From an uncultured virus (IMG/VR IMGVR_UViG_3300028805_000095) (lineage: Duplodnaviria > Heunggongvirae > Uroviricota > Caudoviricetes): a stretch of 20,000 nt of DNA. Shown here in pieces: positions 1 through 19,515 of the stretch. Position numbers and translations under genes: made by a program. The notes beneath the pieces were generated by a model. That model was not told where the DNA came from, ran no database searches, and saw only the letters and a list, made by a program, of their open reading frames with translations. The stretch lies in IMG/VR virus record IMGVR_UViG_3300028805_000095. The stretch is one strand, 5' to 3'. Each line of letters begins with the position of its first letter. The first letter of the stretch is position 1.

Positions 1-454
1 CTCTATAATATCATGGCTAAACAGGCTAAGTATATTAATCGTAATAAACGTTCTATGGATAGAAATCTCAATCTAAAGAATCAACAGTTATTTAGATTTC
101 AATCTAAATATATAGAATTATATGATGAAGTAGTAGAGATTCTATCTGGAAAGAAAGGTGAACTAAGAACACTTGTATCTGGTAGATTTAACTTTAGTTC
201 TAGAAATGTTATTAAACAGAATCCGAACTTAAGAATCGACCAGGTCGAATTACCTTATGCGGAATTGGTAATTACACAAGAACAGAGAATCATTAATATA
301 TTGCATAGAACTTATAATATTACTTATCAAGAAGCATATAATCAATGGTTCAAAGCAGTAGGAGAAGTTGATCCAATAATTGTAAATATATTACAGGATA
401 TAATTAAATCCTCATGTAATGGAGAAGGATTACCTGTAATAATTAATAGAAATC
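1..454 (+). CDS. Phage multisubunit RNA polymerase beta' N-terminal (catalytic) subunit, first exon in window (open at left edge)
   Basis: Frame is open from base 1. KKGELRTLVSGRFNFSSRNVI..NPNLRIDQVELPY and PVIINRN match beta' motifs (K.G.FR..L.GKRVDFSGRSVI; LLNRAPTLH). Similarity stops at C454, where GTGCG begins. Confidence 0.9.
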
Positions 455-1049
455 GTGCGACTTGTTCAATATTGAAAAGATATTGCATAGATTATAAATC
501 TATGAACTGATAACTCGAGAAGTGGAATGATAGGGTAACGCCTTGAAACACTCCTCTAATACTCCGACATGCATTAAGGTGAAAACTTTTTTGTATGAAG
601 CTCGGTGAAGTCGGCATTTATATATGTCGGGAGTCTATAAAGTATCCATGGTGAGTATGATAATTTATCTGACGAACTTCTGAATTAAAGTCTTGTATTA
701 GTGTGGTCTAGTAAGAAGGGTTTCTATGAACGACCATAGTATATTATAGGTATATTCTAGCTAATATAATTCACAAGAAGCACCTAAAGATACATATGCA
801 AAGATAGAGTTATTGGAACAAGGAAAGGTAGATATGTTCATATCTGCTGAAAAGCGGTGATCGAAGCGTAGATAATTCTTGTAATGAGAATAGGAGTAAT
901 GGTCACCAGTCAATATATTGTATATAATAGTATCTCGAGAATTATTATATATCTTATATTGATGGCACGCCGTATGCGGTGAAAGTCGCATGTACGGTGT
1001 AGAGTGGGGGAAAAGATAGAGATAACTTCAAAGTCTTACCTATCACTAT
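455..1049 (+). mobile_element. Group II intron, ORF-less (595 nt; resembles bacterial class B / IIB)
   Basis: 5' GTGCGA at 455. 34-nt domain V ACGCCGTATGCGGTGAAAGTCGCATGTACGGTGT at 967-1000 (CGC triad, GAAA loop). Domain VI ends TTACCTATCACTAT at 1049. EBS1 GGTTTCT (719-725) is complementary to the exon end AGAAATC (448-454). Removal restores NRN-PTI. Confidence 0.92.
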
Positions 1050-1067
1050 CAACTATATCATATGGAT
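1050..1067 (+). CDS. RNAP beta'-N micro-exon (18 nt; P-T-I-S-Y-G-S)
   Basis: C454+CA ACT ATA TCA TAT GGA T joins both neighbouring exons in frame to give NRNPTISYGSIL, equivalent to bacterial NRAPTLHRLGI. Confidence 0.88.
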
Positions 1068-2210
1068 ATGTTATTTGTCCGGCTGGATAGTGATATCCAG
1101 TAAAAACTACCGTATTAATTGCTGGAAACTCCTTAGAGCTTAAAAGTACTAGTAATAGTAATAATCTTTTAAGATTGGACAATCAGCAGCGAAGAAAAAG
1201 TATATTTAAATAAAATAAATAGGAGGTGATATTTCATGACTCCTATAAAATGTGCATATGAAAAGTTTGTTGACATAACAGATAAAATTGTCCCAAATGT
1301 TAAACCATATTATAAGATTAGTAATATGGGAAGAGTTTATAGTTTACATTCTGAAAAAATTATATCGAATGCTATAGATTCCAAAGGATATTATTATGTA
1401 CAGCTACAAACATATAATGGACCCAAAGCTTGTAGAATTCATAGACTTGTATTAACAGCATTTGATTATCATGAAGGTTGTGAGAATGAATTGGTGAATC
1501 ATGTCGATGGTGATAAATTAAATGATGATTTATTTAATCTAGAGTGGGCAACTTATTCCTCTAATCTTTGTCATGCTATTAGTCATGGATTAATTACATA
1601 TGATAATAGAGGTTCATTATCAAATGAACAAGTTGAAACAATATGTAATTATTTGATGGATTTAAATTATTCACCAACAATGATTGGTCAAATATTAAAT
1701 ATACCGCAAAATATGATATATTCTATATATTATAGAAGGGCATATTTGAGCATTTCGTCGAAATACACATTTCCTGATAGATCAAATATCAAATATAGTC
1801 GTATATTACCTATGAATAAAATAGAAGATATTTGCAAAGCATTTCAGGATACGGTAAACGAAAGACAATCAATGGGTGCAGATGATTATATTCGTTTATG
1901 TTTGAATATCGCAAATGTTGATATTAACAAATCAACAATTAGACTTGCTCAGAGAATATTATATAAATCAGTAAATACAGAAATATCAGATAAATATACT
2001 TTTTAACGTTCAACGACTATCAAAAGCATAGTATAGGAGAAAGACCTATATGAAGAAGCGAGTAGAGTAGAATACAAGTGTATTCGAAATGTACGGGGAC
2101 TCTATATTGGTAACAGATATAGAGTTGAAGATATAGTCTAGTATCCCATTATAATGATGGGGAAGTTCATAAGAGAACTGCACAGATTAACGACCTGTGT
2201 GAATGATACG
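1068..2210 (+). mobile_element. Group I intron (IA2-like) carrying an HNH homing endonuclease
   Basis: P1: exon UGGAU pairs with GUCCG (1077-1081), with U.G at the splice site. P AATTGCTGGAAA 1117-1128; Q AATCAGCAG 1181-1189; R GTTCAACGACTA 2008-2019; S AAGATATAGTC 2128-2138; P9.0 GTATC/GATAC then omega-G 2210. Confidence 0.92.
1236..2006 (+). CDS. Intron-encoded NUMOD4/HNH homing endonuclease
   Basis: YKISNMGRVYS (NUMOD4-like) and RIHRLVLTAF...VNHVDGDKLNDDLFNLEW (HNH_3-like). SD AGGAGGT at 1221-1227. The ORF lies in the P6 loop between Q and R. Confidence 0.9.
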   Translation: MTPIKCAYEKFVDITDKIVPNVKPYYKISNMGRVYSLHSEKIISNAIDSKGYYYVQLQTYNGPKACRIHRLVLTAFDYHEGCENELVNHVDGDKLNDDLFNLEWATYSSNLCHAISHGLITYDNRGSLSNEQVETICNYLMDLNYSPTMIGQILNIPQNMIYSIYYRRAYLSISSKYTFPDRSNIKYSRILPMNKIEDICKAFQDTVNERQSMGADDYIRLCLNIANVDINKSTIRLAQRILYKSVNTEISDKYTF

Positions 2211-2302
2211 CAATCTTACAGATGTACTGCGTTGGTATTAACTTCAACTATTGTATGAGTGTTCCTCTTAGTGTATTAGTACCTCTCGCGGCGGATTTTG
2301 AT
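2211..2302 (+). CDS. RNAP beta'-N exon (92 nt) ending in ...PLAADFD
   Basis: T1067+CA ATC TTA CAG ATG ... CCT CTC GCG GCG GAT TTT GAT translates as SILQMYCVGINFNYCMSVPLSVLVPLAADFD, the first half of the catalytic ADFDGD motif. Confidence 0.9.
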
Positions 2303-2593
2303 AAAGATATAAGCTGTCAAAGTAAAACTCCTTTAATTGCTGGAAACCCTCGTTAGGCTTAAGGTACCAAAGTGTGACAATCCTTAAGATAGAGACAATC
2401 AGCAGCGAAGCTCTAGAAATAGAGAACGTTCAACGACTATCGAAAGCATAATATAGAAGAAATATCTATATGAAGAAGCGAGTAGAGTAGAATGCAAGTG
2501 TATTCGAAACGGGGAGCAGTGTAAGTATGGTAATAGTATTTATACTGAAGATATAGTCTAGACTATATAGAGATATATAGATATTAAACATCA
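2303..2593 (+). mobile_element. Group I intron, ORF-less (291 nt), inserted within DFD/GD
   Basis: P1: UUUUGAU pairs with GUCAAAG (2316-2322), with U.G at the splice site. P AATTGCTGGAAA, Q AATCAGCAG, R GTTCAACGACTA (2428-2439) and S AAGATATAGTC (2548-2558) are present. Removal restores DFD-GD. Confidence 0.9.
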
Positions 2594-2833
2594 GGCGATG
2601 TCTTAAATATCATGCATATTGTGAACTCAAACTTTTATGAAATGGCTAGGGAAGTATTTAATCCTAGAAATGCCATGTATATATCTAGAAATGACGGTAT
2701 GTTGAATAAAGATGTATTACCGCAAAAAGATACATTGGTAAATCTTAATACTTTGAACGATATGTCCTTACGTAAATATAGTGACTCTGAAAGAGAGCAT
2801 ATCGAAAAGATTAAAGCTAAATTTGTAGGCTAG
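2594..2833 (+). CDS. RNAP beta'-N last exon (GDVLNIMH...FNPRNAMYISRNDG...stop)
   Basis: GGC GAT GTC TTA AAT ATC is in frame with the 2612-2833 ORF. The subunit ends about 80 aa after DFDGD, as in the split beta' of phiKZ/AR9-type phage RNAPs (probably the non-virion enzyme). Confidence 0.88.
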   Translation, partial: GDVLNIMHIVNSNFYEMAREVFNPRNAMYISRNDGMLNKDVLPQKDTLVNLNTLNDMSLRKYSDSEREHIEKIKAKFVG

Positions 2834-2893
2834 TTTAAAAAGAGCAGTAATGGAATAGTTATAGAGAATGTGATTTTCCTATCTGCTCTATTT

Positions 2894-2978
2894 GGTAGTG
2901 TGGCAGAGCGGAATTGCGGAGGCTGAGAAGCCTCGGTATCTGATCAATACCATGATGGTTCGACTCCATCAACTACCA
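2894..2978 (+). tRNA. tRNA-Leu(GAG)-like gene, aberrant (6-nt anticodon loop; possibly pseudo-tRNA)
   Basis: Acceptor GGTAGTG/AACTACC (one G.A mismatch), D arm with GG, anticodon stem GAGGC/GCCTC, long variable arm GGTAT/ATACC, T arm GATGG-TTCGACT-CCATC, discriminator A; no encoded CCA. Confidence 0.7.
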
Positions 2979-2986
2979 CATGGCAT

Positions 2987-3156
2987 TGAAGGTTTGGCTT
3001 GCTTAGGACCTTCATAAAAACCTGTTCCCAACGATGATTTCTAAAGAGCAAGTAGAATCATCTGGCAAGGGCGGAAGATAAAAAACTTGGGAAGGTGTGA
3101 CGAACGGTTGGGGTGTCCTCGACGTTTAGTAGTCCGTGCTTAGAGTTACCCTTGCA
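2987..3156 (+). ncRNA. Unidentified structured RNA (kissing loop plus pseudoknot)
   Basis: GC-richer non-coding stretch with five recognisable helices and a 7-bp loop-loop complementarity; details in findings. Confidence 0.55.
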
Positions 3157-3186
3157 TTTAAATATATATTTGGAGGTATTATATAA

Positions 3187-3396
3187 TTGGATAATAAATA
3201 TTGTAAATGGGTCATAAGACCTGGGACTAGTGGAAGTTTATGGGCTCATACACCATGTAAACATGGATTTAATTATCTAAGTAAAATAAGTAGACCTAGT
3301 GAGGTAGAAGATGCATATAATGGAAGATTATGCCCTATATGTGGTAGAACTATTAAGATAGATATGTCATTAATGGTAGATGATATGGAGGTGTGA
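3187..3396 (+). CDS. Small Cys-containing (zinc-ribbon-like) hypothetical protein
   Basis: SD GGAGGT, TTG start, CPICG motif plus upstream Cys residues. Confidence 0.7.
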   Translation: MDNKYCKWVIRPGTSGSLWAHTPCKHGFNYLSKISRPSEVEDAYNGRLCPICGRTIKIDMSLMVDDMEV

Positions 3397-3404
3397 GGTA
3401 ATAT

Positions 3405-3740
3405 ATGCTAAGTAAACAAGAGTTATGGAATAAAGCTGGAACTAGTGAGATTATTACTAGAGATGATTTAGGTGTAGATCCATCGGATAATGATTACGGA
3501 TTTGTAATATTAAATGAAGGATTTACACTAAAATCTTTAGATAAAAGGAGGCTGAATAAAATGAATGGTACTATAGAGATTCCTGCAGAATTAATAGAGA
3601 CATTTGAAACTTATAAGACAAAATACGCTGAATTAGAAAAGCGTAAAGCATCTGGAGAACCTTCTATTGATCACTGGAGATTAAACTCTGAAGTTAGTAA
3701 GATGGAACAACAGATACTTGAATACATAAGAGGTTTATAA
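3405..3740 (+). CDS. Hypothetical protein
   Basis: 111-aa ORF, SD GAGGT, tight operon spacing. Confidence 0.75.
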   Translation: MLSKQELWNKAGTSEIITRDDLGVDPSDNDYGFVILNEGFTLKSLDKRRLNKMNGTIEIPAELIETFETYKTKYAELEKRKASGEPSIDHWRLNSEVSKMEQQILEYIRGL

Positions 3741-3743
3741 TAT

Positions 3744-3971
3744 ATGGATACTAAAGATGGTAATCATAAAGTTACTTTGAAAATAGGATGTTCATGGACA
3801 ACTATTTTACAAATTGTCTTTATAATACTTAAGCTTTGTAAAGTTATTAACTGGAAATGGATCTGGGTATTGGCTCCTACATGGATGAGTATTTGTTTAG
3901 CAATAGTAGCTTTTATGATATTTATATTCATATGTGTTCTACGTGGTTATATTAAAAAGAAGAGGGATTAA
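3744..3971 (+). CDS. Small two-helix membrane protein (phage 'transmembrane Fragile-X-F'-like)
   Basis: LQIVFIILKLCKVINWKWIWVLAPTW pattern is typical of this widespread phage family. Confidence 0.7.
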   Translation: MDTKDGNHKVTLKIGCSWTTILQIVFIILKLCKVINWKWIWVLAPTWMSICLAIVAFMIFIFICVLRGYIKKKRD

Positions 3972-3987
3972 ATTTCCCTCTTCTTTT
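3959..3987 (+). terminator. Rho-independent terminator
   Basis: GAAGAGGGA/TCCCTCTTC stem followed by a T tract. Confidence 0.75.
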
Positions 3988-4036
3988 ATTTTTATCTATA
4001 ACACCCATATAATTAATATATAGGAGGTAATTAACC

Positions 4037-4237
4037 ATGGCTAATATTGGATCATGTATGGGTGATGGTATTAATAAATGTGATTATTGTGAATTTAGAG
4101 ATTTATGTTCTATTAGAAATGAAATAGATTCTACAGATAGTGGCGATCCTTGTGAAGGATGTCCTGGTCCTAATAATGGTAATAACTCTGATAAGAAATT
4201 ATATCCTAATTACTTAAGATGGTGGACTAAAGGATGA
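4037..4237 (+). CDS. Cys-rich small hypothetical protein
   Basis: SD AGGAGGT; CDYC..C and CEGCP motifs. Confidence 0.7.
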   Translation: MANIGSCMGDGINKCDYCEFRDLCSIRNEIDSTDSGDPCEGCPGPNNGNNSDKKLYPNYLRWWTKG

Positions 4238-4313
4238 TATTTTAATAATTTATAACCCTTATCACTTAAATATAATGCCAGAGAAAGTTATATTTATAGG
4301 AAGGGAATCTTTT

Positions 4314-4727
4314 ATGTCACATAAGAAAATGTTTAAATTTGGAAGTAGAGGAGTTGAGATAATCTGTAAAGAAGATTTAACCGTAGAGAAGTTAATTGAT
4401 AGAGATATTATTAAGTCTTATATGATTAAATCTAAAGACCATAAGTATGCTTTGATACAGTGTACTAAGAAGTATTTCATTGTAGCATATTTAGGTCAGG
4501 AATGTGGGTATATAGAAAACAAGAGAACTAAGACTAGAGATTTATTTGAATTTGAATGTCCTGAAGAAGACATATCATTCTTTAAGTTAAAGAAGTATAA
4601 GTCATCAAATCACACATATGATTATGAGAATGAAGATTCAGATAATGAGAGAACTATGATATTTAAAGAGGGAGTTTTCTATCTTAATTCGAAAGGATAT
4701 ACACATCATGAAAAAGAAAGAGCTTGA
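4314..4727 (+). CDS. Hypothetical protein (start 4314 preferred over 4275)
   Basis: Purine-rich SD AGGAAGGG precedes the in-frame ATG at 4314. Confidence 0.65.
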   Translation: MSHKKMFKFGSRGVEIICKEDLTVEKLIDRDIIKSYMIKSKDHKYALIQCTKKYFIVAYLGQECGYIENKRTKTRDLFEFECPEEDISFFKLKKYKSSNHTYDYENEDSDNERTMIFKEGVFYLNSKGYTHHEKERA

Positions 4728-5238
4728 GAAAGCAATAGCATTGTATGATACTATTGAAGGTGCTGTATTAGTTGATAATTATATAGCAAAATTATATAAA
4801 GAAGAGATTGACGAATTAGCTACATTCGTTAAGAAAGTAAGTGAAGATGTATTATCTACACCTAAACATGTTAAAGCGCATGGTTTTATTGAGGATATTA
4901 AGAAGACTTATTTAGTACAACTTAATGAGACTAATCAAGTAGTTATAGTATTAACTATTGATACTGAACCATTTGATAGTGTTGAATATGGTAAATATGA
5001 TGTAGATATAGCATTATCATTTAGAATATTTGATAAATCTACATGGTTAGATCAGTTCGTGGTTACTGGTGTTGGTAAACATGGTGGAATGGATTTAGAC
5101 GAATTCCAAGATTGGGTGTTATTACTTAGATTCTTATGTACTAAGAAGAAAGAGAATGCTAAATATATTCCCACGAATGAACAGATGATAGTCAATATTC
5201 TAAACGATGTTGAAAAGACATTAGAAGGAAAAGACTAA
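4708..5238 (+). CDS. Hypothetical protein
   Basis: 176-aa ORF, SD AAAGGA, overlaps the upstream gene end. Confidence 0.75.
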   Translation: MKKKELEKAIALYDTIEGAVLVDNYIAKLYKEEIDELATFVKKVSEDVLSTPKHVKAHGFIEDIKKTYLVQLNETNQVVIVLTIDTEPFDSVEYGKYDVDIALSFRIFDKSTWLDQFVVTGVGKHGGMDLDEFQDWVLLLRFLCTKKKENAKYIPTNEQMIVNILNDVEKTLEGKD

Positions 5239-5244
5239 TATAAA

Positions 5245-5271
5245 ACCACTAGAGCATAACGCTCTAGTGGT
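5245..5271. terminator. Bidirectional terminator between convergent genes
   Basis: Perfect 11-bp stem ACCACTAGAGC/GCTCTAGTGGT flanked by A and T tracts. Confidence 0.8.
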
Positions 5272-5278
5272 ATATTTT

Positions 5279-6136
5279 TTATATTATTACCCAACCGATG
5301 GTTTCTCCACCTTTAACATCAGTAACTCTGATTCTATTGTTCAATATTCTAGCATTAGTAATATAAACTCTACCACTAATAATCTTTAAAGGAGTACTAG
5401 CAATACTAGTCTTATATACTTCTGCATCTTTTACATTGAAGAAACCACCTTCTTTATAAGTTTTCTTCTTTTTGATTCTTTCTTTCTTAGGCTTCTCTTC
5501 AACAAAGTCATCTTTAAGATAAGGATTAATAATCTCAGAAGTTTCGTTTAATGAAACATGTCCTGCGATTCCTTTCACTTCATGTTTATCTGATACTCTA
5601 GTCATAACTACATTATCTATCTTAGAATCATCATCTTTAATAACCCAGAAGAATGTATTATTAATGACAGATACATCAAGATGTGATTTAAACCATGAGC
5701 TAGTAGCCATAATACCACACTTTAAACCAAGAGTACCACATTCTTCCACGAATGTTTTAATAATCTTACTTCTTTCATCTACTGTAAGAGAATCTGATCT
5801 TCCTTTATGTGTCGATGAAGTCCATTCTGAACATACATAGATAGGTAATGATAATCTTACATTACTCTGATGAATTAATGATACAAAGAACTGTGCTTCT
5901 GCTTTAGCTTCTTCTTCTGTGATAGCTGCAGATACATAGTAACTACCAACACTAATTTTATTATTACTTAATTCTGTTATGTATGGGAAAAATCTAGGAT
6001 CAATAGAAGGAACACCATTCATGTTTCCTGAGAAACCTGCACGAACTATAACACCATCTATAGATTGTGCAATTGTAGAAAAGTTTACTATAGCATTCCA
6101 TTTACTAATGTCTAGTATATTCAATACTTTTTTCAT
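5279..6136 (-). CDS. GH25 muramidase (lysozyme)-like protein with a C-terminal putative binding domain; active site degenerate
   Basis: LDISKWN, VIVRAG, IDPRF, VGSYY, A..EAQFF follow the GH25 barrel pattern. SD AAGGAGG precedes ATG 6136. Confidence 0.8.
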   Translation of the reverse strand: MKKVLNILDISKWNAIVNFSTIAQSIDGVIVRAGFSGNMNGVPSIDPRFFPYITELSNNKISVGSYYVSAAITEEEAKAEAQFFVSLIHQSNVRLSLPIYVCSEWTSSTHKGRSDSLTVDERSKIIKTFVEECGTLGLKCGIMATSSWFKSHLDVSVINNTFFWVIKDDDSKIDNVVMTRVSDKHEVKGIAGHVSLNETSEIINPYLKDDFVEEKPKKERIKKKKTYKEGGFFNVKDAEVYKTSIASTPLKIISGRVYITNARILNNRIRVTDVKGGETIGWVII

Positions 6137-6264
6137 AATAACCTCCTTTAAAACAAACAAGTGGTATTTTACTAAAATGTTCGCATATGTAAAATCGTAG
6201 GATTTAACTTTATTATAATAAGTAATTAAGGCTTATAACCTATAGAAAGGAGCTTTATGCTATA

Positions 6265-7260
6265 ATGGAAACAAGAAAGATAAAGACATATGCAGATACA
6301 TATGTATATAATGCTTCTACATCAGAAGAAGGAAGTTTCGCAAGAAGTCTTATAGAATTCATTAGAACTTCAGATAGAATAAATGTAAATAGTACAGCAT
6401 TCGAACAAGTTAGAAATCAGGTTAAAGTTAGACAGACTACAGCTGTTTTATATAGAATTCTTATGAATAAGAATGTAGTTCTATGTATGAATGGTAAAGA
6501 AGCACCTGCTTCTTTTAAAGTATTCATGGCTAAAGATGTTTTAACTAACAAGGATAAGAAAGTGTTCATCGATGTAACTGGATTACTTAAGATGAATAAT
6601 GGTATGTACTATTGTAAAGAGATAGATAAACTCTGTGCTTATCTTATTATGGCTTTAGTACAGTTCTTATACTATGATAATAATCAGAGATTAATCGATG
6701 ATAATGTGGTTTGCAAAGCATCTATGGAATGCTTTATTAAACTCTTTACTGGTATTTTAGATAATCTTAGAGTTGCTAATTTTGCAGAGAATAGAATAAA
6801 GATTTCTTATATTGCTGGTGTATATTATGGTTATGCTGTAATGGGTAAACCTTTAGATTCTGCTAGAAAGTATGCTGCTAGTGTAACTGGTATCAATCTT
6901 AAAGATGCTGGTGGATATGACTATTGGTATAAGTTAGAAGACTTTAAAGATATCAATAAGTTTATCACATTCCTCAGTGATGCTTTCCATTTGAATGGTT
7001 TAACTACAGGAGTATTTCTTGTAAGATATATGCAGATGTATGGTAAAGGAACAATATTTGGATTGGAAATTCTTCCTTCATTTATCAGTATTATTACTAA
7101 TGCATATAGCGGTTCATTTATTAATTCTCAGAAGACTATTGAGAAATTCTGTGGCAGAGAGATGATTAATTTATCCACAGAAATTTTAAGATTAGGCGCT
7201 GAGATTTATAGTAATGGATTTACTTATGAATCCAATGCTAAAAGAGAAGACTATGAATAA
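6265..7260 (+). CDS. Hypothetical protein, 331 aa (possibly a conserved jumbo-phage protein)
   Basis: Long ORF with SD AAAGGAG, followed by a strong hairpin. No motif recognised. Confidence 0.8.
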   Translation: METRKIKTYADTYVYNASTSEEGSFARSLIEFIRTSDRINVNSTAFEQVRNQVKVRQTTAVLYRILMNKNVVLCMNGKEAPASFKVFMAKDVLTNKDKKVFIDVTGLLKMNNGMYYCKEIDKLCAYLIMALVQFLYYDNNQRLIDDNVVCKASMECFIKLFTGILDNLRVANFAENRIKISYIAGVYYGYAVMGKPLDSARKYAASVTGINLKDAGGYDYWYKLEDFKDINKFITFLSDAFHLNGLTTGVFLVRYMQMYGKGTIFGLEILPSFISIITNAYSGSFINSQKTIEKFCGREMINLSTEILRLGAEIYSNGFTYESNAKREDYE

Positions 7261-7268
7261 AAGATAAC

Positions 7269-7293
7269 GGGAGAGGATAATTTATCCTCTCCC
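7269..7293 (+). terminator. Terminator-like hairpin
   Basis: GGGAGAGGATA/TATCCTCTCCC stem directly after the stop codon; weak T tract. Confidence 0.65.
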
Positions 7294-7435
7294 ATAAATT
7301 TCGCCTAAATTACGGAATTTTAACGATAAACCGATAGATTATATAGAAAATGCTAGAAATCGTCTAATTTGAATATATACTGTTCGTAACAGTACCTAAA
7401 TAGGTATCCTGACGAAGGCTATTAAAAGAAATTAT

Positions 7436-7457
7436 AATAATATATTATAAAAATGTA
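7436..7457 (+). promoter_or_regulatory. Putative phage early promoter
   Basis: AATAATATATTATAAAAATGTA, 18/22 identical to 12068-12089. Both lie at the head of + strand transcription units. Confidence 0.45.
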
Positions 7458-7496
7458 ACGTAAACAATATTATATCTAGGAAGGGAGATATATAAT

Positions 7497-7925
7497 ATGA
7501 AATGTCCTTATAGAACAAAGAAGACTGCTACTTATAATACTGAATATGATGATGATGGTAATGTAGCATACAACAATCTCGAAGAGGAGATTACTGATTT
7601 TGAAGAATGCTTAATGAGTGATTGCCCGCTTTATAAAGTTGAGGATGATTCAGAGAGCTGTATGAAATCAGAGATAGAAAAGAAAAACTTCTCTGATACT
7701 ATCGCCGGTTTGACGGGTGAAGCAGATGATCGCTATAGATCATATGTAACGGATTTGATCAATAATGAATTTATTACAGAAGTAAAGAATTCTAATCAAC
7801 CTGTAGATTATCACAAGATACTTATATGGTTATCATTATATGGTGCTAGATATGAAAACTTTAGAAAAGAATTACTCGACTATTTCTATAAGCACTATGA
7901 TGTAACTGTAAAAGAAAATAATTAA
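7497..7925 (+). CDS. Hypothetical protein (MKCPY...C...CP)
   Basis: 142-aa ORF with SD AGGGAG. Confidence 0.75.
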   Translation: MKCPYRTKKTATYNTEYDDDGNVAYNNLEEEITDFEECLMSDCPLYKVEDDSESCMKSEIEKKNFSDTIAGLTGEADDRYRSYVTDLINNEFITEVKNSNQPVDYHKILIWLSLYGARYENFRKELLDYFYKHYDVTVKENN

Positions 7926-7950
7926 AAATTAAATATTGGAGGTATTATTC

Positions 7951-8610
7951 ATGAGTAAGACAATTGAAGAATTAAGAGAACAGATTAATAGTATTACCAC
8001 TATTCTCGAAATCGCAGATATTTTATCTGTGTACCCTGTTAAAGAATCTAACTACAGAGCTAATATATCCATAGTTAGAGTAAATGGTTATGTAATCGGT
8101 TGGTCAACAGATGGCGAGATGATTTATGTGACCAGTGCTGGGGAAGAAATTCTCCATGAAACTTCAGATGAACTCATCAGTGAGAAAGCTAAGAATTTTA
8201 TCTTAGATAATATACTTAGATTAAATAACTCAGATGACTTCTATAAATATTATTTCAGAAGATATGGTTATGATACAGCAGATATAAATTCTGAAACTGT
8301 AAGAGAAGCATTAAACTTCTTTGAAAGTAATAGAGCTATTATTAATCATTTATTTATCAATGATGATTATCATTCTATTACACTCACAGGAAAGAGAGTA
8401 AGTAATCAAAATGAGTTGGAATACCGCATTGCTAACTGTGACAAGCAGGATATCTTAGATATCGTAGAGATAACTCATATTACCCCTGCTATTAATAAGA
8501 GAAACACATTTGATTATGAGAATCCTTATTATAATAGACCATTTACAAGTAGCCAAGATATCTTAGATTCTTATAACGAGTATAGAGATTCTCAGAGATA
8601 TGATGACTAG
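7951..8610 (+). CDS. Hypothetical protein (start 7951 preferred)
   Basis: SD GGAGGT precedes the in-frame ATG at 7951. Confidence 0.75.
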   Translation: MSKTIEELREQINSITTILEIADILSVYPVKESNYRANISIVRVNGYVIGWSTDGEMIYVTSAGEEILHETSDELISEKAKNFILDNILRLNNSDDFYKYYFRRYGYDTADINSETVREALNFFESNRAIINHLFINDDYHSITLTGKRVSNQNELEYRIANCDKQDILDIVEITHITPAINKRNTFDYENPYYNRPFTSSQDILDSYNEYRDSQRYDD

Positions 8611-8620
8611 GAGGTAGAAT

Positions 8621-8944
8621 ATGGCTGTTAAATACGAGTGTGACAAATGTCACAATTTATTTGATACTAAACTAACTCCTGTTGACTTAGGTCATCTTCA
8701 TTATCAGGTATGCAATGCTTGCTTACATGAATTCTCTCAATTAATGCTAAATCCTAAATTTAGTTTACATGCTAGAGTAGAATTAGTAAGAGAAGATGAT
8801 GGTACAGTAGCATTCGAAGGAGAGATATTTAGGCGAATTAGATTTCCTCAGAGTGGTGATCACTTTTATCATTATGATGTAATGCTAGATGATGGAGAGT
8901 TAATAACAGATATTCCTGAGAATGTATTAAGGATTAAAAATTAA
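8621..8944 (+). CDS. Zinc-ribbon-containing hypothetical protein
   Basis: CDKC...CNAC pair; SD AGGAGGT. Confidence 0.75.
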   Translation: MAVKYECDKCHNLFDTKLTPVDLGHLHYQVCNACLHEFSQLMLNPKFSLHARVELVREDDGTVAFEGEIFRRIRFPQSGDHFYHYDVMLDDGELITDIPENVLRIKN

Positions 8945-8961
8945 ATATGGAGGGTAACCTT

Positions 8962-9285
8962 ATGAAAAATATTAATCTTAAGGATGAGAGCACTCTTAGA
9001 AGTGCACTCATTATTTTATATAATATCAATAAGGCATTAGACACTTTAGAGTCTATAGGAATCAATATCGAAGATGGAGAAGGAAATATCGGTAGATATG
9101 TATATGGTTCTAGTACAGAAGGATATACAATTATCGAAAATTGCTTCGAGAATATTGAACCATCTGATGAGTTGGTTATAGCTGAGATTGTTGAAGACTT
9201 GTACAGTGGTATTGAGAGTAAAGAAGAAGCTATAGATAGAGTTGTAGAAGCTCTTAAGACCAAGTTCGGTTTATTGGAGGATTAA
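8962..9285 (+). CDS. Acidic hypothetical protein (start 8962 preferred)
   Basis: SD GGAGG precedes the in-frame ATG at 8962. Confidence 0.72.
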   Translation: MKNINLKDESTLRSALIILYNINKALDTLESIGINIEDGEGNIGRYVYGSSTEGYTIIENCFENIEPSDELVIAEIVEDLYSGIESKEEAIDRVVEALKTKFGLLED

Positions 9286-9286
9286 T

Positions 9287-9712
9287 ATGAGCAAAGAATT
9301 AATTATATTTTCTATGATATTCTGTCATATAATCGATGATTATTTATTACAAAATGCACTTGCTAATCTTAAACAAAAGAAATACTGGGAAGATTATGTA
9401 AAGTCTCATTATATAGGAAAAACATTACCGGATACTATGTATAAACACGATTATATAGTTGCTTTAATATGCCATGCTTTTGAATGGGCTTTTATGATTA
9501 ATCTTCCAATAGTAATTTATATGATTCATAGATTAGATGAACCTAAGTTCATAATATTCTATAGTATATCTATAATAGTTAACACAATAATCCATGCATT
9601 AATTGATAATTTAAAGGCTAATAAATTGTCTATTAATTTAGTTACAGATCAATTATTTCATTTAGCTCAGATATTTATTACTTGTGGATTATTTAATCTA
9701 TTTATAATATAG
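9287..9712 (+). CDS. DUF3307-family membrane protein
   Basis: HIIDDYLLQ...K, H, HALID..K and DQLFH motifs with hydrophobic helices. Confidence 0.8.
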   Translation: MSKELIIFSMIFCHIIDDYLLQNALANLKQKKYWEDYVKSHYIGKTLPDTMYKHDYIVALICHAFEWAFMINLPIVIYMIHRLDEPKFIIFYSISIIVNTIIHALIDNLKANKLSINLVTDQLFHLAQIFITCGLFNLFII

Positions 9713-9747
9713 AAGATATATAATATCTTCAAAAACAATTTAATATT

Positions 9748-9781
9748 ATCCAGAGAGAATTAATCTCTCTGGATTATTTTT
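9748..9781 (+). terminator. Rho-independent terminator
   Basis: ATCCAGAGAGA/TCTCTCTGGAT stem plus T tract. Confidence 0.7.
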
Positions 9782-9799
9782 ATGAAAGGAAAATGGATA

Positions 9800-10309
9800 A
9801 TGAAAACCTATGTAACTTATGGCCTTGGCAAATTCGATAAATCTAAATTGGTAGTGAATTTATCTCCAGGAATACAAGGCAAACCGGTATGTGCATTTTG
9901 GGGTTCTCCTATAGATTCAGAATATGGTTGGAAAGACTGGTGTGAAGCCAATGAATTTTATGGTAATCCTAATAAGATATTCTCTCCAGAGAATACGATC
10001 ACATGGACTTTAGAAGATGATAGTAAAATATTAGATATAGAATCTATAGATGATTTAGAGAATTATTTTCATATGGATTATATAAAGAACTATCAAAGAT
10101 GGCCAGGAGAAATAAACTATAATTTCGATTTCGTTAGAATATTGAAAGATGGATATAGTGCGATAGAATTACATGACTCAGCAATAGGACATATGTTTTT
10201 CTTATATTTAAGAAACGAAGAGAAACATCAACTGGATATGATGATGAATAGCTGGGATTGTGAATCCATAGTTGTATTAGATCCTGATAAGATTAAGATA
10301 ATAGAATAA
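9800..10309 (+). CDS. Hypothetical protein with ADP-ribosyltransferase-fold-like motif order
   Basis: YVTYG..FDKSK / KP..FWGS / LKDGYSAIEL / WDCESIVVLDPDKIK. SD AAAGGA precedes ATG 9800. The CDS is secure; the function is tentative. Confidence 0.6.
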   Translation: MKTYVTYGLGKFDKSKLVVNLSPGIQGKPVCAFWGSPIDSEYGWKDWCEANEFYGNPNKIFSPENTITWTLEDDSKILDIESIDDLENYFHMDYIKNYQRWPGEINYNFDFVRILKDGYSAIELHDSAIGHMFFLYLRNEEKHQLDMMMNSWDCESIVVLDPDKIKIIE

Positions 10310-10322
10310 TTGGAGGTATATT

Positions 10323-10499
10323 ATGAAACTTACAGAAAAAGATAAATTACTTTTGATAACAATGTATAAGATTGTTATTGCCATTATCAAGTGCACATCA
10401 TATATTATGCTAATAGATGATGATGGTTATAGCAGCAGTGACTTTTATGATCTTATGTGTAAACTTGGATTAGAAGACGATATACAGGAGATTAAATAA
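10323..10499 (+). CDS. Small hypothetical protein, 58 aa (not in ORF track)
   Basis: SD GGAGGT; MKLTEKDKLLL...QEIK; stop overlaps the next ATG (TAATG). Confidence 0.7.
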   Translation: MKLTEKDKLLLITMYKIVIAIIKCTSYIMLIDDDGYSSSDFYDLMCKLGLEDDIQEIK

Positions 10500-10711
10500 T
10501 GGGAAGCTTTGAAGATTTAATAGATTTTTTCCAATCTCAAATTTTATATGAACTGGTTATTCCAGATCCAGAGCCTAATGAATGGTTTTGGAAAGTTATT
10601 GATGTTAATCTACCATTTGATGTGGACTTATCAATTAATTACAGTGCAAAGGAATACGCATTATATGATATACATGAATATTTTAATGTACTGTTATTGA
10701 AAGGAGATTAA
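10499..10711 (+). CDS. Hypothetical protein
   Basis: SD AGGAG; translational coupling with the upstream ORF. Confidence 0.65.
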   Translation: MGSFEDLIDFFQSQILYELVIPDPEPNEWFWKVIDVNLPFDVDLSINYSAKEYALYDIHEYFNVLLLKGD

Positions 10712-10714
10712 ATA

Positions 10715-10906
10715 ATGGATATGTTGCAAGATGATACAGATAATATCAAGAATATGCTGGATGAATTACATGTCATATTTAAGAAATATAATTTTATTCC
10801 TGATGAAACTACATTATCTGATGAAGACAAGATAAAGATGTGTAATGAAGCTGTACCATTATGTGATAAATATGGTTACGAATTCAAAATGCAGTCTAAT
10901 TATTGA
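10715..10906 (+). CDS. Hypothetical protein
   Basis: SD AAAGGAG; 63 aa. Confidence 0.68.
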   Translation: MDMLQDDTDNIKNMLDELHVIFKKYNFIPDETTLSDEDKIKMCNEAVPLCDKYGYEFKMQSNY

Positions 10907-10928
10907 TTCAAAGAAAGGAGAATAAATA

Positions 10929-11333
10929 ATGAGACATAATATAGTTGAAGTTAAGTTATATCCTAATATAGGAAAACTTTATGTGAGATATGTTGGAGAT
11001 GTTGATGTAGTGCCACAATATATACCTCATGAGAACTTAGATGATCATTCTATATCTATGTATTGTGCAGAAGGTAATATAATAGACACAATACAAATTG
11101 TTCTTAATTGTTCAATAAGTCGTCTTATTAATAATATTAATCACGATACCGCAAAAATTGAGAATTTAAGAAATATATTAAAATCTTATACAACTGGTTA
11201 TCCTGGACAGGAAGAGATATTAGAGAAATGTGAGCGTCTATGTGAAGATATAAATATATCTAACTCTAAATCTTCTACTGTTAAATCAGATAATAGACGT
11301 AAGAGAGTTGATGTAACTAAATTAGTACTTTAA
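10929..11333 (+). CDS. Hypothetical protein with C-terminal NRRKRVDVTKLVL tag
   Basis: SD AAAGGAG; 134 aa. Confidence 0.75.
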   Translation: MRHNIVEVKLYPNIGKLYVRYVGDVDVVPQYIPHENLDDHSISMYCAEGNIIDTIQIVLNCSISRLINNINHDTAKIENLRNILKSYTTGYPGQEEILEKCERLCEDINISNSKSSTVKSDNRRKRVDVTKLVL

Positions 11334-11346
11334 TGGAGGTGTTACT

Positions 11347-11475
11347 ATGACATTATCTATAATACAATTAATAATTTTATGTATAGTTAATATAGCAGTA
11401 GGTATATGTATTAGTAGTACTATGTGGATATTGATGGTCAGTAATATATTCGAAAATAAAATAAGTGATTCATAA
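11347..11475 (+). CDS. Small single-pass membrane peptide, 42 aa (not in ORF track)
   Basis: SD GGAGGT; MTLSIIQLIILCIVNIAVGICISSTMWILMV... Confidence 0.65.
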   Translation: MTLSIIQLIILCIVNIAVGICISSTMWILMVSNIFENKISDS

Positions 11476-11486
11476 GGAGAATAACA

Positions 11487-11627
11487 ATGAACAAAATTAA
11501 GTGGTTATTCACTTCAAAGGTTAAGAGATTAGAGCATACTATGAAAGTTATGTATGAGAACAAACAAGCATTGCACTTCGCAGGGTTTAGATTTGATTTT
11601 AATTCTATGACGATTGAGAAAGATTAA
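11487..11627 (+). CDS. Small hypothetical protein, 46 aa (not in ORF track)
   Basis: SD AAGGAG; MNKIKWLFTSK...IEKD. Confidence 0.62.
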   Translation: MNKIKWLFTSKVKRLEHTMKVMYENKQALHFAGFRFDFNSMTIEKD

Positions 11628-11639
11628 GGTAGAATAACA

Positions 11640-11771
11640 ATGGCAATACTTTTTTACGATAAGAATACACCCCTATGTGCATTTTCATCTTGGACAAAGG
11701 ATAAAACAAAGTATGTTAAGGAAACAACGGATAGGCAGTTTGTTGAAAAGAAAAGGAGAACAAAACAATGA
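11640..11771 (+). CDS. Small hypothetical protein, 43 aa (not in ORF track)
   Basis: Fills the gap between ORFs; stop overlaps the next start (ATGA); weak SD. Confidence 0.5.
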   Translation: MAILFYDKNTPLCAFSSWTKDKTKYVKETTDRQFVEKKRRTKQ

Positions 11772-12046
11772 AAACATTTGATATTTATTTCAGTGATTTA
11801 AATATAGATGCACAGAAGCGATTAATGGATGCTGTAGGCATTTCATCACCTTCTGAAGAAAACTGGGATATAGACATGTGTCCGATAGCAATATATGAGT
11901 TTGAGAGCTCAGATAAAGATTCAAAAGATACAAAGGGAAATAACCCGAAAGTTATTATTAATGTAAGTGATGCAATACCGAATATCGATGTAAGCGATAA
12001 ATTAAATAGACGTAAGAGAGTAGATGTAACTAAATTGGTTCTTTAA
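11768..12046 (+). CDS. Hypothetical protein with C-terminal NRRKRVDVTKLVL tag
   Basis: SD AAAGGAG; 92 aa. Confidence 0.75.
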   Translation: MKTFDIYFSDLNIDAQKRLMDAVGISSPSEENWDIDMCPIAIYEFESSDKDSKDTKGNNPKVIINVSDAIPNIDVSDKLNRRKRVDVTKLVL

Positions 12047-12067
12047 TTAGTAAAAGTTCAAAATTTC

Positions 12068-12089
12068 AATTATATATAATATAAGTGTA
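12068..12089 (+). promoter_or_regulatory. Putative phage early promoter
   Basis: AATTATATATAATATAAGTGTA, a near copy of 7436-7457. Confidence 0.45.
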
Positions 12090-12408
12090 TAAAGACAAAG
12101 ATTATCCTTTATACGGCGAATCATAGTTTTTATAGAATCATTTAACGTGGCGCTTCACTGGCGCAGTATATAAATAGAGTGCGGCTCTGTTAATCGACCG
12201 ATACGTGATTAACTATGGATTATAATAATAAATAGATCTTATATTATAATCTGAAGATGAATCATAGTGTACATGTATAGAGTATTCTGCTCAAAACAAA
12301 TGAATGGGCTAGACCCACAAGCCAGAATAACAGAGCTGGGTCACTGGAACCAGCAGCAGTGAGTCTCTATTGGAATAAAGTTAAGGATCTATCTTAACTT
12401 TATTTTTT
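12086..12408 (+). ncRNA. Unidentified structured RNA with its own promoter-like site and terminator
   Basis: ORF-free stretch of about 320 nt with nested long-range helices and a potential pseudoknot; details in findings. Confidence 0.55.
12374..12408 (+). terminator. Rho-independent terminator
   Basis: AATAAAGTTAAG/CTTAACTTTATT stem plus T tract. Confidence 0.7.
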
Positions 12409-12450
12409 GATAATTAATAATTAAAATATTTATATGAAAGGAGATCAATA

Positions 12451-12846
12451 ATGATAATTTATGAAGGATTCTTTATAATCTCTAAAATAGCAAGTTCATT
12501 ATCAACAGATATTGAACATAAGCATGTAACTACAGAATTTAGACCTGAAATCACTCATGAAGAGCTCTATGGTTCAAATGTTATTCTTCACGTTTCCAAA
12601 TATGGTAATGATGGAGAGAATGAAGGACTTTATGTGGATAGTATTGAAACCGACAATAACACACTCAATAACCTTTTTAATAGTATAACTGTCCCACACA
12701 TTACATTATCAGTTTCTGATACAGGAAAACCTGTCAATACATCAAGAATTAAATTTGATAAAGATTGGAATGGTGCCACTGTATTAGATGCAATATTTGG
12801 TGGATTTAGAGATAATGGAGTGGTAAGTCAAAATAAAAAGCCCTAG
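12451..12846 (+). CDS. Stand-alone 2H phosphoesterase (cyclic phosphodiesterase-like)
   Basis: Two Hx(T/S) motifs: KHVTT and PHITLS...KP. SD AAAGGAG. Confidence 0.72.
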   Translation: MIIYEGFFIISKIASSLSTDIEHKHVTTEFRPEITHEELYGSNVILHVSKYGNDGENEGLYVDSIETDNNTLNNLFNSITVPHITLSVSDTGKPVNTSRIKFDKDWNGATVLDAIFGGFRDNGVVSQNKKP

Positions 12847-12862
12847 GGAGAATCCCTAGGGC
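12840..12862. terminator. Terminator hairpin between convergent genes
   Basis: GCCCTAGGGA/TCCCTAGGGC stem; an A tract on the left gives a T tract on the minus strand. Confidence 0.75.
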
Positions 12863-12911
12863 CTTATCTTTACATAATAAAATATTTTATTTAAGGCTTA
12901 GTAATTAGAAA

Positions 12912-14666: not shown

Positions 14667-14766
14667 AATGTATTTCCTCCTTAAAATATTAAAGTTTTTT
14701 ATGATTGTAATAATACAATATAGAAAATTGGGACATTAACGTATACCTTTAAATATACATTAATTT

Positions 14767-14778
14767 TACTTAAATGTT
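14767..14778 (-). promoter_or_regulatory. Putative late promoter AACA-N6-TA
   Basis: AACA-TTTAAG-TA upstream of the capsid gene matches the AR9 non-virion RNAP promoter consensus. Confidence 0.5.
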
Positions 14779-14825
14779 ATATATTTATACCCTTAATTTA
14801 TTAGTAAAATACCATAAAAACACAA

Positions 14826-14864
14826 TAAATAAGTCTCAGAGTATAATACTCTGAGACTTATTTA
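14826..14864 (-). terminator. Terminator hairpin
   Basis: Long perfect inverted repeat TAAATAAGTCTCAGAGTA/TACTCTGAGACTTATTTA just after the 14875 stop codon. Confidence 0.75.
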
Positions 14865-14874
14865 ATTTAGATAA

Positions 14875-15594
14875 TTATTCTTCTTTATTATTTTTATTAA
14901 TATTCTTTGTTACATTTTTTATAGCATTAAATACTGCCAGATATCTATTAAATATCAAATCATTCTCTACATAAGATTTTAAATCATATAAATTGAGAAT
15001 ATAAAATGATATCATTCCTTTAATATCTAATAACAGACTAGAGATTTTCTTTATATGAGTAATATCTTCTTCACACTCTAATGAAATTTCATTAAATCTA
15101 TCTATAAGAGATACACAATTATTATATAAATCTACAAAATTATTTTTGAGTTCTCTAATCTTAATCTGTTGTTCTGCTAATGTGAGACTATCAAATAATT
15201 CTCTATCTTTAGCCTTTAATGCATCAGACTTCTGAGTATTTTCTTCATCACTATTAGAAGAATACATATCATCTTCAGACGGTTCTTTATTCTCATCATT
15301 ATTGTCATCATCATTTATGGTGAAATCATCGTTACCGTCTTCTTCATCTTGATTATCATCATTATTGTCATCATTCTGATTTTCGTCTTCTTGATTATCT
15401 TCTTGCTGATTATCATCGTTATTCTCTTCTTCTTGATTATTATCTTCTGTCTGATTATCATTAGCAGAATTATCTTCAGTATTATTATCTGCAGAGGTAC
15501 TATCATTAGTCTCTGCAGCATCAGCTGTATTATCAGCAGCAGTCTGATTATCATCATCTGCTTCAAATAAAAATAATCTTCTTTCAGAAATCAT
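14875..15594 (-). CDS. Acidic low-complexity protein (possible head/internal or scaffold-type protein)
   Basis: D/E/N-rich N-terminal ~120 aa plus a helical C-terminal domain; adjacent to the capsid gene; SD GAGGT. Confidence 0.7.
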   Translation of the reverse strand: MISERRLFLFEADDDNQTAADNTADAAETNDSTSADNNTEDNSANDNQTEDNNQEEENNDDNQQEDNQEDENQNDDNNDDNQDEEDGNDDFTINDDDNNDENKEPSEDDMYSSNSDEENTQKSDALKAKDRELFDSLTLAEQQIKIRELKNNFVDLYNNCVSLIDRFNEISLECEEDITHIKKISSLLLDIKGMISFYILNLYDLKSYVENDLIFNRYLAVFNAIKNVTKNINKNNKEE

Positions 15595-15617
15595 GTTTAT
15601 AATACCTCTGGTAAATA

Positions 15618-15758: not shown

Positions 15759-15759
15759 A

Positions 15760-17353: not shown

Positions 17354-17370
17354 TAAATAAACATTTATAC

Positions 17371-19493: not shown

Positions 19494-19515
19494 ATATAAT
19501 TTATTAAGAAGATTT

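Follow-up and report, generated by a model that had tools for sequence, protein, structure and literature searches.

In the passages we draw on, the survey by Merk, Jones and Eddy (NAR 2025; PMC12350094) reports 20 group II introns in curated phage genomes and group II matches in 9,229 IMG/VR contigs, and reads such introns as mobile elements. Six of the 20 lack an open reading frame (ORF), ∼600 nt being typical of the ORF-less form, and Clostridium phage c-st supplies a IIB reference. Virion RNA polymerase (RNAP) β′-N genes, for example AR9 g145, carry a group II intron together with a group I intron; by the report's own statement, splicing was not confirmed experimentally. The preliminary description of the DNA studied here had called group II introns rarely reported in phages, a view that these counts overturn. 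Tight packing of self-splicing introns is described for Staphylococcus phage Twort, whose orf142 is interrupted by three group I introns, with a 23-nt exon separating two IA2 introns that are similar, and whose exon skipping was demonstrated by RT-PCR; the same account includes a Coxiella intron system with a 34-nt exon and exon skipping (PMC10136302, as excerpted). Because the presence of both intron classes in one phage RNAP β′ gene was published in 2025, the locus below is a further case rather than the first. What is new here is that its third intron ends in A rather than in the canonical terminal G.

The window, i.e., the whole 20,000-nt stretch of uncultured virus DNA that we analyzed (IMG/VR IMGVR_UViG_3300028805_000095), starts inside the gene for the β′-N subunit of a non-virion multisubunit RNAP, the N-terminal half of a β′-like subunit that carries the Mg-binding DFDGD loop. 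Its source is an uncultured jumbo (giant gut) phage, distant kin of AR9, PBS1, and phiR1-37. Very probably, the ∼125 nt that are most conserved in this gene have been colonized three times by selfish self-splicing elements. The features, all on the plus strand, are as follows:

1 to 454, plus strand: exon 1 of the RNAP β′-N gene, open at the 5′ edge of the window and ending on the first base of the NRNP Pro codon
455 to 1049, plus strand: ORF-less group II intron of 595 nt (RF02004, RF00029), starting GUGCG and ending AU
1050 to 1067, plus strand: exon 2, a micro-exon of 18 nt that completes the Pro codon and continues T-I-S-Y-G
1068 to 2210, plus strand: group I intron 2, 1143 nt, with sub-threshold Intron_gpI pieces and a core like that of intron 3
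1236 to 2006, plus strand: HNH homing endonuclease gene (256 aa) in the P6 loop of intron 2, with a NUMOD4 DNA-binding motif
2211 to 2302, plus strand: exon 3, 92 nt, ending with the D-F-D codons of DFDGD and aligning to relatives L007, L008, and L009
2303 to 2593, plus strand: group I intron 3, ORF-less, 291 nt (RF00028, P1, P10, RNA junction)
2594 to 2833, plus strand: exon 4, opening with the G-D of DFDGD, continuing VLNI, and ending at the stop codon

Rfam, reading frame, and homologue alignment agree on the three introns of two classes at 455-1049, 1068-2210, and 2303-2593, as the preliminary description had proposed from the sequence. Exon 1 matches phrog_2987 ("RNA polymerase beta subunit") at 5.3e-20, and in tblastn it is matched by phiR1-37 g274, BpSp gp018, and AR9 g270 at 31-35% identity; g270, annotated as a non-virion RNAP subunit, is the best AR9 match to the window. 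With Pfam RNA_pol_Rpb1_2, exon 1 alone scores 19.9 bits, below the cut-off, and the protein of the uninterrupted relative L007 scores 44.6 bits (2.4e-11); the latter also matches PDB 7S01 chain d ("DNA-directed RNA polymerase beta′ subunit") at 1.7e-45. Alignments of uninterrupted homologue proteins cover positions 4-453 of exon 1, and tblastn HSPs of the phiR1-37 and BpSp proteins cover 2594-2761 of exon 4. Joining the four exons (454|1050, 1067|2211, 2302|2594) yields 804 nt in frame whose sole stop is terminal, and it rebuilds both NRNPTIS-G-SIL and DFDGD, motifs of jumbo-phage non-virion RNAP β′-N; in protein alignments, NRNPTISxGSIL is unbroken in the homologues. The joining needs no frame adjustment, and it reproduces letter for letter the peptide that the preliminary description had given. 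Its expectation that the spliced product would be continuous with phage β′ homologues is borne out as well: identity to uninterrupted L007 is 50% over 262 aa, with no gap at any of the three junctions. Since exons 2 and 3 comprise 18 and 92 nt, all three introns fall within 110 nt of coding sequence, also as claimed. Megablast of window positions 1-3000 against 50,697 phage records gave no match, nor did an Rfam scan of positions 2800-20000 at E ≤ 0.1.

The Rfam scan that the preliminary description had proposed placed the group II intron and intron 3 above gathering thresholds and recovered intron 2 as sub-threshold pieces. For the group II intron, the full RF02004 model (group-II-D1D4-5; 1-201) matches positions 502-641 (120.8 bits; E 2.4e-26), and RF00029 (Intron_gpII, D5/D6) reaches 56.9 bits at 965-1049 (gathering score 40; E 4.8e-09). 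The D5 catalytic triad position reads CGC in the RF00029 alignment. In the minimum-energy fold, D6 has A1042 as a bulge, 7 nt short of the intron's last base, and the fold has a z of −3.77. Candidate EBS1 (GGUUUC, 719-724) could pair with GAAAUC at 449-454 and candidate EBS2 (UAUUAG, 696-701) with UUAAUA at 443-448, each to be read against a control in which 64 of 443 exon 1 positions pair equally well with domain 1 by chance, the sequence being A+T-rich. The intron has no same-strand ORF of at least 40 aa, and no reverse transcriptase family was found among the 28 ORFs scanned for a reverse transcriptase/maturase in the 20-kb window. Group II introns without an ORF count as an accepted form (6 of 20 in Merk et al.), and thus a missing reverse transcriptase does not exclude membership. 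The intron is a discrete insert, absent exactly at 454|1050 in relative L023 and in one contig of run X4. Going by similarity, it may belong to subclass IIB, and it is presumably spliced in vivo. Separately, a 28-nt group II D1 pattern had a single match among viral contigs, L022, where an intron related to that of the window (D5/D6 87% identical) lies in a different host gene.

Intron 2 gave two Intron_gpI pieces, 1120-1228 (20.9 bits) and 2042-2160 (24.2 bits), both sub-threshold because the ORF at 1236-2006 splits the core. That core is 83% identical to intron 3 over 142 nt and 80% over 83 nt. The last four bases of exon 2, GGAU, form the exon strand of P1 and pair with the guide sequence GUCC at 1077-1080, and the 5′ exon ends in U; the terminal nucleotide of the intron is the canonical G (G2210). 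The product of the internal ORF matches Pfam NUMOD4 (6.7e-08; 33.1 bits, cut-off 23.4) and phrog_59 (9.4e-29), with a match to HNH_3 below the cut-off (20.6 bits against 24.8; 3.6e-04), and it shares 39% identity with AR9 g271 and 36% with the intron ORF of L008. Its nuclease motif, NUMOD module, and location within an intron together mark it as a predicted HNH-family homing endonuclease, which presumably drives homing.

We compared the locus with sequencing runs as assembled contigs, not reads, with no inference on amounts and with depths left unranked. Run X3 is a metatranscriptome from a study other than that of the likely source sample. One of its contigs (260 nt, 0 mismatches) passes straight from 2302 to 2594, no base being ambiguous; its short side is 26 nt, under the caution mark of 30, and an intron-less variant is a possible source. 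Another X3 contig (280 nt) joins 2210 back to 1070 with a 56-nt side and looks like intron 2 circularized through its terminal G. A third covers only the interior of the group II intron (471-996). The preliminary description had suggested looking for all three spliced junctions in RNA: 2302|2594 was recovered in this way, and no listed RNA contig crosses 454|1050 or 1067|2211. Run X4 has one contig with the group II intron and another without it, the latter passing from 454 to 1061 via 11 synonymous replacement letters. In run X1, contig 971-2157 runs from the 3′ end of the group II intron through exon 2 into intron 2, contig 2151-2425 from the 3′ end of intron 2 through exon 3 into the 5′ half of intron 3, and contig 2461-3000 from the 3′ half of intron 3 into exon 4, each with 0 differences. 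Run X1 is the likely source sample and therefore tests the assembly rather than serving as an independent replicate. Other joints (454 to 2397, 616 to 955, 1222 to 2443, 2182 to 2396, and others) were set aside; they have short sides and look like related introns of other organisms.

Intron 3 matches RF00028 (Intron_gpI) at 2259-2580 with 82.2 bits (E 7.1e-20; gathering score 50). Its P1 pairs UUUGAU (2297-2302) with GUCAAA (2316-2321) and is present in the minimum-energy fold; its P10 pairs GGC (2594-2596) with GCU (2313-2315). Exon ligation by group I introns normally requires a terminal G of the intron. Intron 3 ends instead in A2593: DFDGD is restored by no other junction, and at 2302|2594 there is no base that could belong to either side. 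In the Rfam alignment, the final G of the model lands on G2580, and the tail beyond it (2581-2593) aligns with the start of the P9.1/9.2 extension of the family. Intron 2 and all six comparator group I introns of the gene family end in G. Because of its core, P1, P10, and RNA junction, we keep intron 3 as an atypical group I member; from its sequence, it looks like a 3′-truncated derivative of the intron family resident in this RNAP gene. A 29-nt pattern over the exon 3/intron 3 border, exact or degenerate, had no match in viral or in metagenome contigs, and no second copy of intron 3 turned up there. The group I-like insert at AAD|FDGD in relatives L027-L033 appears likewise to have a last base other than G, and these inserts and intron 3 may represent one lineage of phage RNAP introns with a relaxed terminal-G requirement. 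Raghavan et al. in 2007 reportedly described a functional group I intron without the canonical terminal G; the terminal base of that intron, from Coxiella, is said to be A.

Intron content among the relatives ranges from 0 to 3. Introns are absent from the stretch in 12 of 15 viral-contig loci, L007 and L020 (= phiR1-37) among them, and L024-L026 and L034 are uninterrupted as well. The metagenome contig L023 (82% identity in DNA, 94% in protein) lacks only the group II intron: its exon goes from window position 454 straight to 1052, and intron 2 is in place. The intron 2 site is also occupied in L009 as well as in L023; two group I introns are present in each of L008 and L009, at other sites or at the intron 2 site, and in AR9 g270 a single group I intron, with an HNH gene, lies at DYDG|D. 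Other introns of the relatives occupy five more sites within the same ∼125 nt, which argues for a homing hot spot, and comparison across the relatives maps six insertion sites around the catalytic loop. Rfam gathering thresholds missed all ORF-containing or divergent introns, namely those of AR9 g270 (L001), intron 1 of L008, and the inserts of L027-L033; since known introns are missed, we did not take lack of an Rfam match as absence of an intron. Querying viral contigs with exon 1 alone gave 14 pattern matches, 0 of them confirmed; the relatives came from an alignment query.

Variation in intron number and site, together with a relative that lacks the group II intron only, is the pattern of selfish mobile elements. 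Under the model that we favor, a group II intron would have inserted after the first base of the NRNP Pro codon, an HNH-bearing group I intron 18 nt beyond the group II site, and intron 3 between the DFD and GD codons, and an active subunit would require excision of all three from the transcript. The group II intron would leave via branching at A1042, or via hydrolysis, and the group I introns via guanosine-initiated transesterification, guided by their P1 helices, which end in a U-G pair. Clustering of the sites would reflect homing into an invariant target, not benefit to the phage.

The preliminary description had proposed that three splicing reactions gate the catalytic subunit and could time late transcription. 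The appeal of such a device, by which the phage would delay or tune production of the subunit, is that the DFDGD loop forms only once all three introns have been removed, by two chemistries. A conserved device would not vary from 0 to 3 introns among relatives, though, or be missing its group II intron alone in L023; moreover, a homing endonuclease within one of the introns is the mark of a selfish element, and the excerpted text of Merk et al. takes such introns to be mobile (PMC12350094). We found no support for the timing claim and consider a regulatory role very unlikely. It is more improbable still that the locus is an assembly chimera, in which introns of different strains were stitched together and no genome has all three. 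The two group I cores are repeats, and in the source run breaks between Logan contigs fall at 971-996, 2151-2185, and 2410-2490, stretches to which numerous related intron pieces of other organisms map; against this, the zero-difference contigs of run X1 bridge the elements, albeit in the likely source sample and without independent replication.

The terminal A of intron 3 might block correct ligation, with G2580 or G2594 used instead to give a frameshifted, truncated protein; the RNA joined at 2302|2594 would then come from an intron-less co-resident, and the window copy would be defective or dependent on coinfection. The A2593 end, the placement of the model's final G on G2580, and the terminal G shared by intron 2 and the six comparators all fit such a crippled intron, as does the coexistence of variants in run X4. 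Yet a phage with a dead catalytic subunit would be unlikely to attain a depth of ∼10 on long X1 contigs. In run X3, the contigs of the group II intron, intron 2, and the spliced junction all match the window with 0 mismatches, which argues that they derive from the same strain; P1 and P10 both indicate 2302|2594; and a functional group I intron lacking the canonical terminal G is on record, to go by the title of Raghavan et al. 2007. On balance, a defective intron 3 seems unlikely. Short of even odds, we tentatively put forward the reading that intron 3, as a natural group I intron, ligates its exons in vivo despite its last nucleotide being A, with P10 rather than a terminal G setting the 3′ site.

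The locus is another clear instance of the group II introns recently found in phages, here in the non-virion polymerase paralogue, and it is the densest arrangement among the gene-family members that we compared: three introns of two classes, separated by exons of 18 and 92 nt. Public RNA data supply one ligated junction and one intron circle, going beyond the unconfirmed splicing of Merk et al. With insertion sites clustered around the catalytic loop, the gene should serve well as a natural system in which to study how homing elements compete, and the terminal A of a group I intron could shed light on the choice of 3′ splice sites. Unless its introns are modeled, gene callers will annotate this essential gene in pieces.

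Among known systems, AR9/PBS1 g145 is likewise a jumbo-phage β′-N gene with both intron classes. In Rfam, AR9 g145 (L004) scores 80.7 bits with RF02004, 55.2 with RF00029, and 86.7 with RF00028; RF02004 thus matches the group II introns of both loci, and their D5/D6 are 82% identical. The group I intron of g145, at DYD|GD, shares its codon boundary with intron 3 but ends in G whereas intron 3 ends in A. Furthermore, g145 belongs to the paralogous virion enzyme and has two introns, in contrast to three in the non-virion gene of the window; its group II intron encodes a homing endonuclease (g147), whereas that of the window is ORF-less, and lies about 5 codons downstream of the window site, as read from motifs. 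AR9 g270 is the ortholog of the window gene, and its group I intron also bears an HNH plus NUMOD4-type endonuclease (g271). That intron is in the catalytic loop, 3 nt downstream of the position of intron 3, but it is the only one: g270 has no group II intron and none at NRNPTIS. The ORF-less group IIB introns of Listeria phage LPJP1 and Clostridium phage c-st have D5/D6 that are 82-86% identical to those of the window intron, which is also ∼600 nt long, but they occupy a different host gene and site.

In layout, the locus resembles Twort orf142, which also has packed self-splicing introns, a micro-exon, and a near-twin group I pair. All Twort introns are group I, whereas one of those in the window is group II, and the guide sequences of the window's group I introns differ (GUCC and GUCAAA). 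Judging from the window sequence, skipping of exon 3 would shift the frame. The Coxiella intron, reportedly natural and functional, parallels intron 3 in being a group I intron without a terminal G beside a very short exon; it lies in a bacterial rRNA gene, whereas intron 3 lies in a phage protein gene.

The frame open across positions 1 to 454 matched phrog_2987 ("RNA polymerase beta subunit"; 5.3e-20) and was 31 to 35% identical by tblastn to the beta'-N genes of Yersinia phage phiR1-37 (g274), Bacillus phage BpSp (gp018), and AR9 (g270), the last annotated as "non-virion RNAP subunit ... N-terminus"; the 5' part of the gene falls beyond the window edge. Features of the window (31% G+C) are as follows.

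1-454: exon 1 of the beta'-N gene
455-1049: group II intron
1050-1067: exon 2
1068-2210: intron 2, group I
1236-2006: 256-aa ORF in the P6 loop of intron 2
2211-2302: exon 3
2303-2593: intron 3, group I
2594-2833: exon 4
2894-2979 (+): tRNA-like gene, directly downstream of the RNAP gene
2980-3170 (+): noncoding stretch separating the tRNA-like gene from the following ORF
elsewhere in the window: major head protein (phrog_20655; 3.8e-20)
elsewhere in the window: GH25 endolysin
elsewhere in the window: virion structural protein

ARAGORN folded the tRNA-like gene as a type II (Leu|Ser) cloverleaf whose anticodon loop has 6 nt and whose "anticodon" has 2 bases; the Rfam tRNA model gave no match to this interval at E<=1 or E<=0.1. 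The noncoding stretch, which is apparently richer in G+C than its surroundings and had no Rfam match, might be a structured RNA.

Joined by script, the four exons give an 804-nt in-frame product whose sole stop is terminal, and from it we recovered the peptide that the preliminary description had claimed without frame adjustment. The phiR1-37 and BpSp genes are uninterrupted, and their proteins match 4-453 and 2594-2761, and the junctions rebuild the stretch NRNPTIS-LGSIL ... G-DFDGD-VLNI of these phages. The best test of continuity is L007, a viral contig of 230 kb whose gene has no interruption (50% identity over 262 residues); this alignment to a phage beta' homologue, as suggested in the preliminary description, was continuous at all three junction positions. 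The 520-aa L007 protein itself matches RNA_pol_Rpb1_2 (2.4e-11); among solved structures it is closest to PDB 7S01 chain d (1.7e-45), a "DNA-directed RNA polymerase beta' subunit," with a phiKZ polymerase chain (PHIKZ055; 8.7e-15) next.

The stretch was present in four public sequencing runs, all compared with the window as assembled contigs: two of a sheep-gut metagenome (X1 and X2), the likely source, one of a sheep-gut metatranscriptome from another study (X3), and a further run (X4). The RNA junctions predicted in the preliminary description were recovered in part: a 260-nt X3 contig joins 2302 directly to 2594 with no mismatch, as predicted for exons 3 and 4, its short side being 26 nt, just below the caution mark of 30, and among the RNA contigs listed none crosses 454/1050 or 1067/2211. 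A 280-nt X3 contig joins 2210 back to 1070; circularization of intron 2, with its terminal G attacking two bases inside the 5' end, would look like this, and the joint sets G2210 as the last base of the intron. Because zero-difference X1 contigs span 971-2157, 2151-2425, and 2461-3000, we place all three introns on one molecule in that sample. In another X1 DNA contig, a group I core is linked to the final 24 nt of exon 1 (joint 454->2397), which may represent a co-resident variant with a group I intron at the window's group II site; the related locus L009 carries a group I intron 2 nt from that site.

The three introns of two classes previously claimed, including a group I intron with HNH, were confirmed. 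In the group II intron, RF02004 (D1-D4; 502-641; 120.8 bits) and RF00029 (D5/D6; 965-1049; 56.9 bits) both exceed Rfam gathering thresholds. It begins with GUGCG at 455 and ends with AU at 1049, A1042 is bulged from D6 in the minimum-energy fold, and by similarity the intron is a putative member of subclass IIB. Candidate EBS/IBS pairs did not exceed the chance level of this A+T-rich DNA, in which 64 of 443 control positions did as well. Its D5/D6 shares 82 to 86% identity with its counterparts in c-st, AR9, LPJP1, and MarsHill. At about 2330-3130 (- strand), near the end of a gene other than RNAP beta'-N, a 210-kb viral contig, L022, holds a relative of this group II intron, with identities of 87% in D5/D6 and 78% across part of D1.

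Intron 2 gave only two partial group I matches (20.9 and 24.2 bits), and the flanks of its ORF resemble intron 3 (80% identity over 83 nt and 83% over 142 nt). The ORF product has a NUMOD4 motif (6.7e-08), a weak HNH_3 match (20.6 bits, below the Pfam cutoff of 24.8), and a match to phrog_59, "HNH endonuclease" (9.4e-29), and is 39% identical to the AR9 intron endonuclease g271. At the 5' site, upstream GGAU pairs with GUCC at 1077-1080.

Intron 3 is matched by RF00028 at 2259-2580 with 82.2 bits, above the gathering threshold. UUUGAU, which precedes it, pairs with GUCAAA at 2316-2321 in a helix present in the predicted fold, and GCU at 2313-2315, immediately upstream of this guide, can pair with the first three bases of exon 4 (GGC) as a P10 in the usual position. 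Its last base is A2593, and the 2302/2594 junction is present in RNA despite this; six of six comparator introns, as well as intron 2, end in G. With the cut sites shifted, a different ligated sequence results (T2302 does not match A2593, nor A2303 G2594), and ending the intron at G2580, G2594, G2595, or G2597 wrecks DFDGD or the frame in each case. In the Rfam alignment, the model's final G falls on G2580, closing the P9 hairpin. The 13 bases 3' of G2580 align with the beginning of a tail ("GAAGTTCATAAGAG...") that intron 2, AR9 g145, and the two L008 introns have in common, and intron 3 therefore has the look of a family member truncated at its 3' end. A self-splicing group I intron of Coxiella reportedly also "lacks the canonical omegaG."

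The group II intron is polymorphic among close relatives, as seen in two sources. The metagenome contig L023 (82% DNA and 94% protein identity to the window) lacks this intron only, exactly at its predicted borders: window 454 runs straight into 1052, and intron 2 with its ORF is kept at the same site. One X4 contig joins 454 to 1061 through 11 replacement letters, in which six synonymous base changes leave the four residues unaltered; a second runs from exon 1 on into the group II intron. The four codons after the group II site (window 1050-1060; L023 274-284) are recoded in both intron-less alleles, with 6 changes in 11 nt of the X4 contig versus 7 in the 454 nt of its exon 1. A recombination tract or a target-site change could account for this.

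Our alignment query retrieved 15 viral-contig loci, 12 of which (L007, 10 others, and L020 from phiR1-37) are uninterrupted across NRNPT...DFDGD; AR9 (L018) has one intron, and two loci, L008 and L009, hold a pair of group I introns each. Among 12 closer metagenome loci (L024 to L035), four are uninterrupted (L024, L025, L026, and L034), L027 to L033 are interrupted at AAD/FDGD by an insert that measures 542, 1279, or 1509 nt, and L035 resembles L009.

Insertions around NRNP...DFDGD (slash, insertion point): site; element; where found
inside Pro codon of NRNP; group II intron; window
P/T; group I intron; L009
inside Ile codon of PTI; group I intron; L008
Ser codon after G, past first base; group I intron; window, L009, L023
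AAD/F; insert; L027-L033
DFD/GD; group I intron; window, also AR9 virion paralogue g145
DFDG/D; group I intron; L008, AR9 g270

The L027 to L033 proteins are 47% identical to that of the window. Their insert (for example, L029 4577-5106) has a weak group I match (17.3 bits; E 0.069) and no G ahead of the inferred 3' exon, the inferred last base being A or C, or U if an ambiguous T is shifted; the 3' ends hold imperfect copies of the exon junction.

For the earlier suggestion that the introns gate or time late transcription, we found nothing in favor. The pattern is one of many independent insertions, variable in occupancy and with an endonuclease in some copies, and fits selfish elements homing into an invariant target from which imprecise loss would be lethal.

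Nor are group II introns as rarely reported in phages as the preliminary description had it: Merk, Jones and Eddy (NAR 2025, PMC12350094) give 20 in 29,015 curated phage genomes, 6 of the 20 ORF-less, and 9,229 IMG/VR contigs with group II intron matches. The paper also shows virion RNAP beta'-N genes that hold an intron of each class, group II and group I. In agreement, RF02004, RF00029, and RF00028 all match AR9 g145, whose group I intron lies at DYD/GD. Compared with the cases described there, the window gene is the non-virion paralogue, has three introns, places an 18-nt exon between the group II 3' site and the group I 5' site, and has splicing partly seen in RNA. The arrangement adds to an already described kind and is not a new one.
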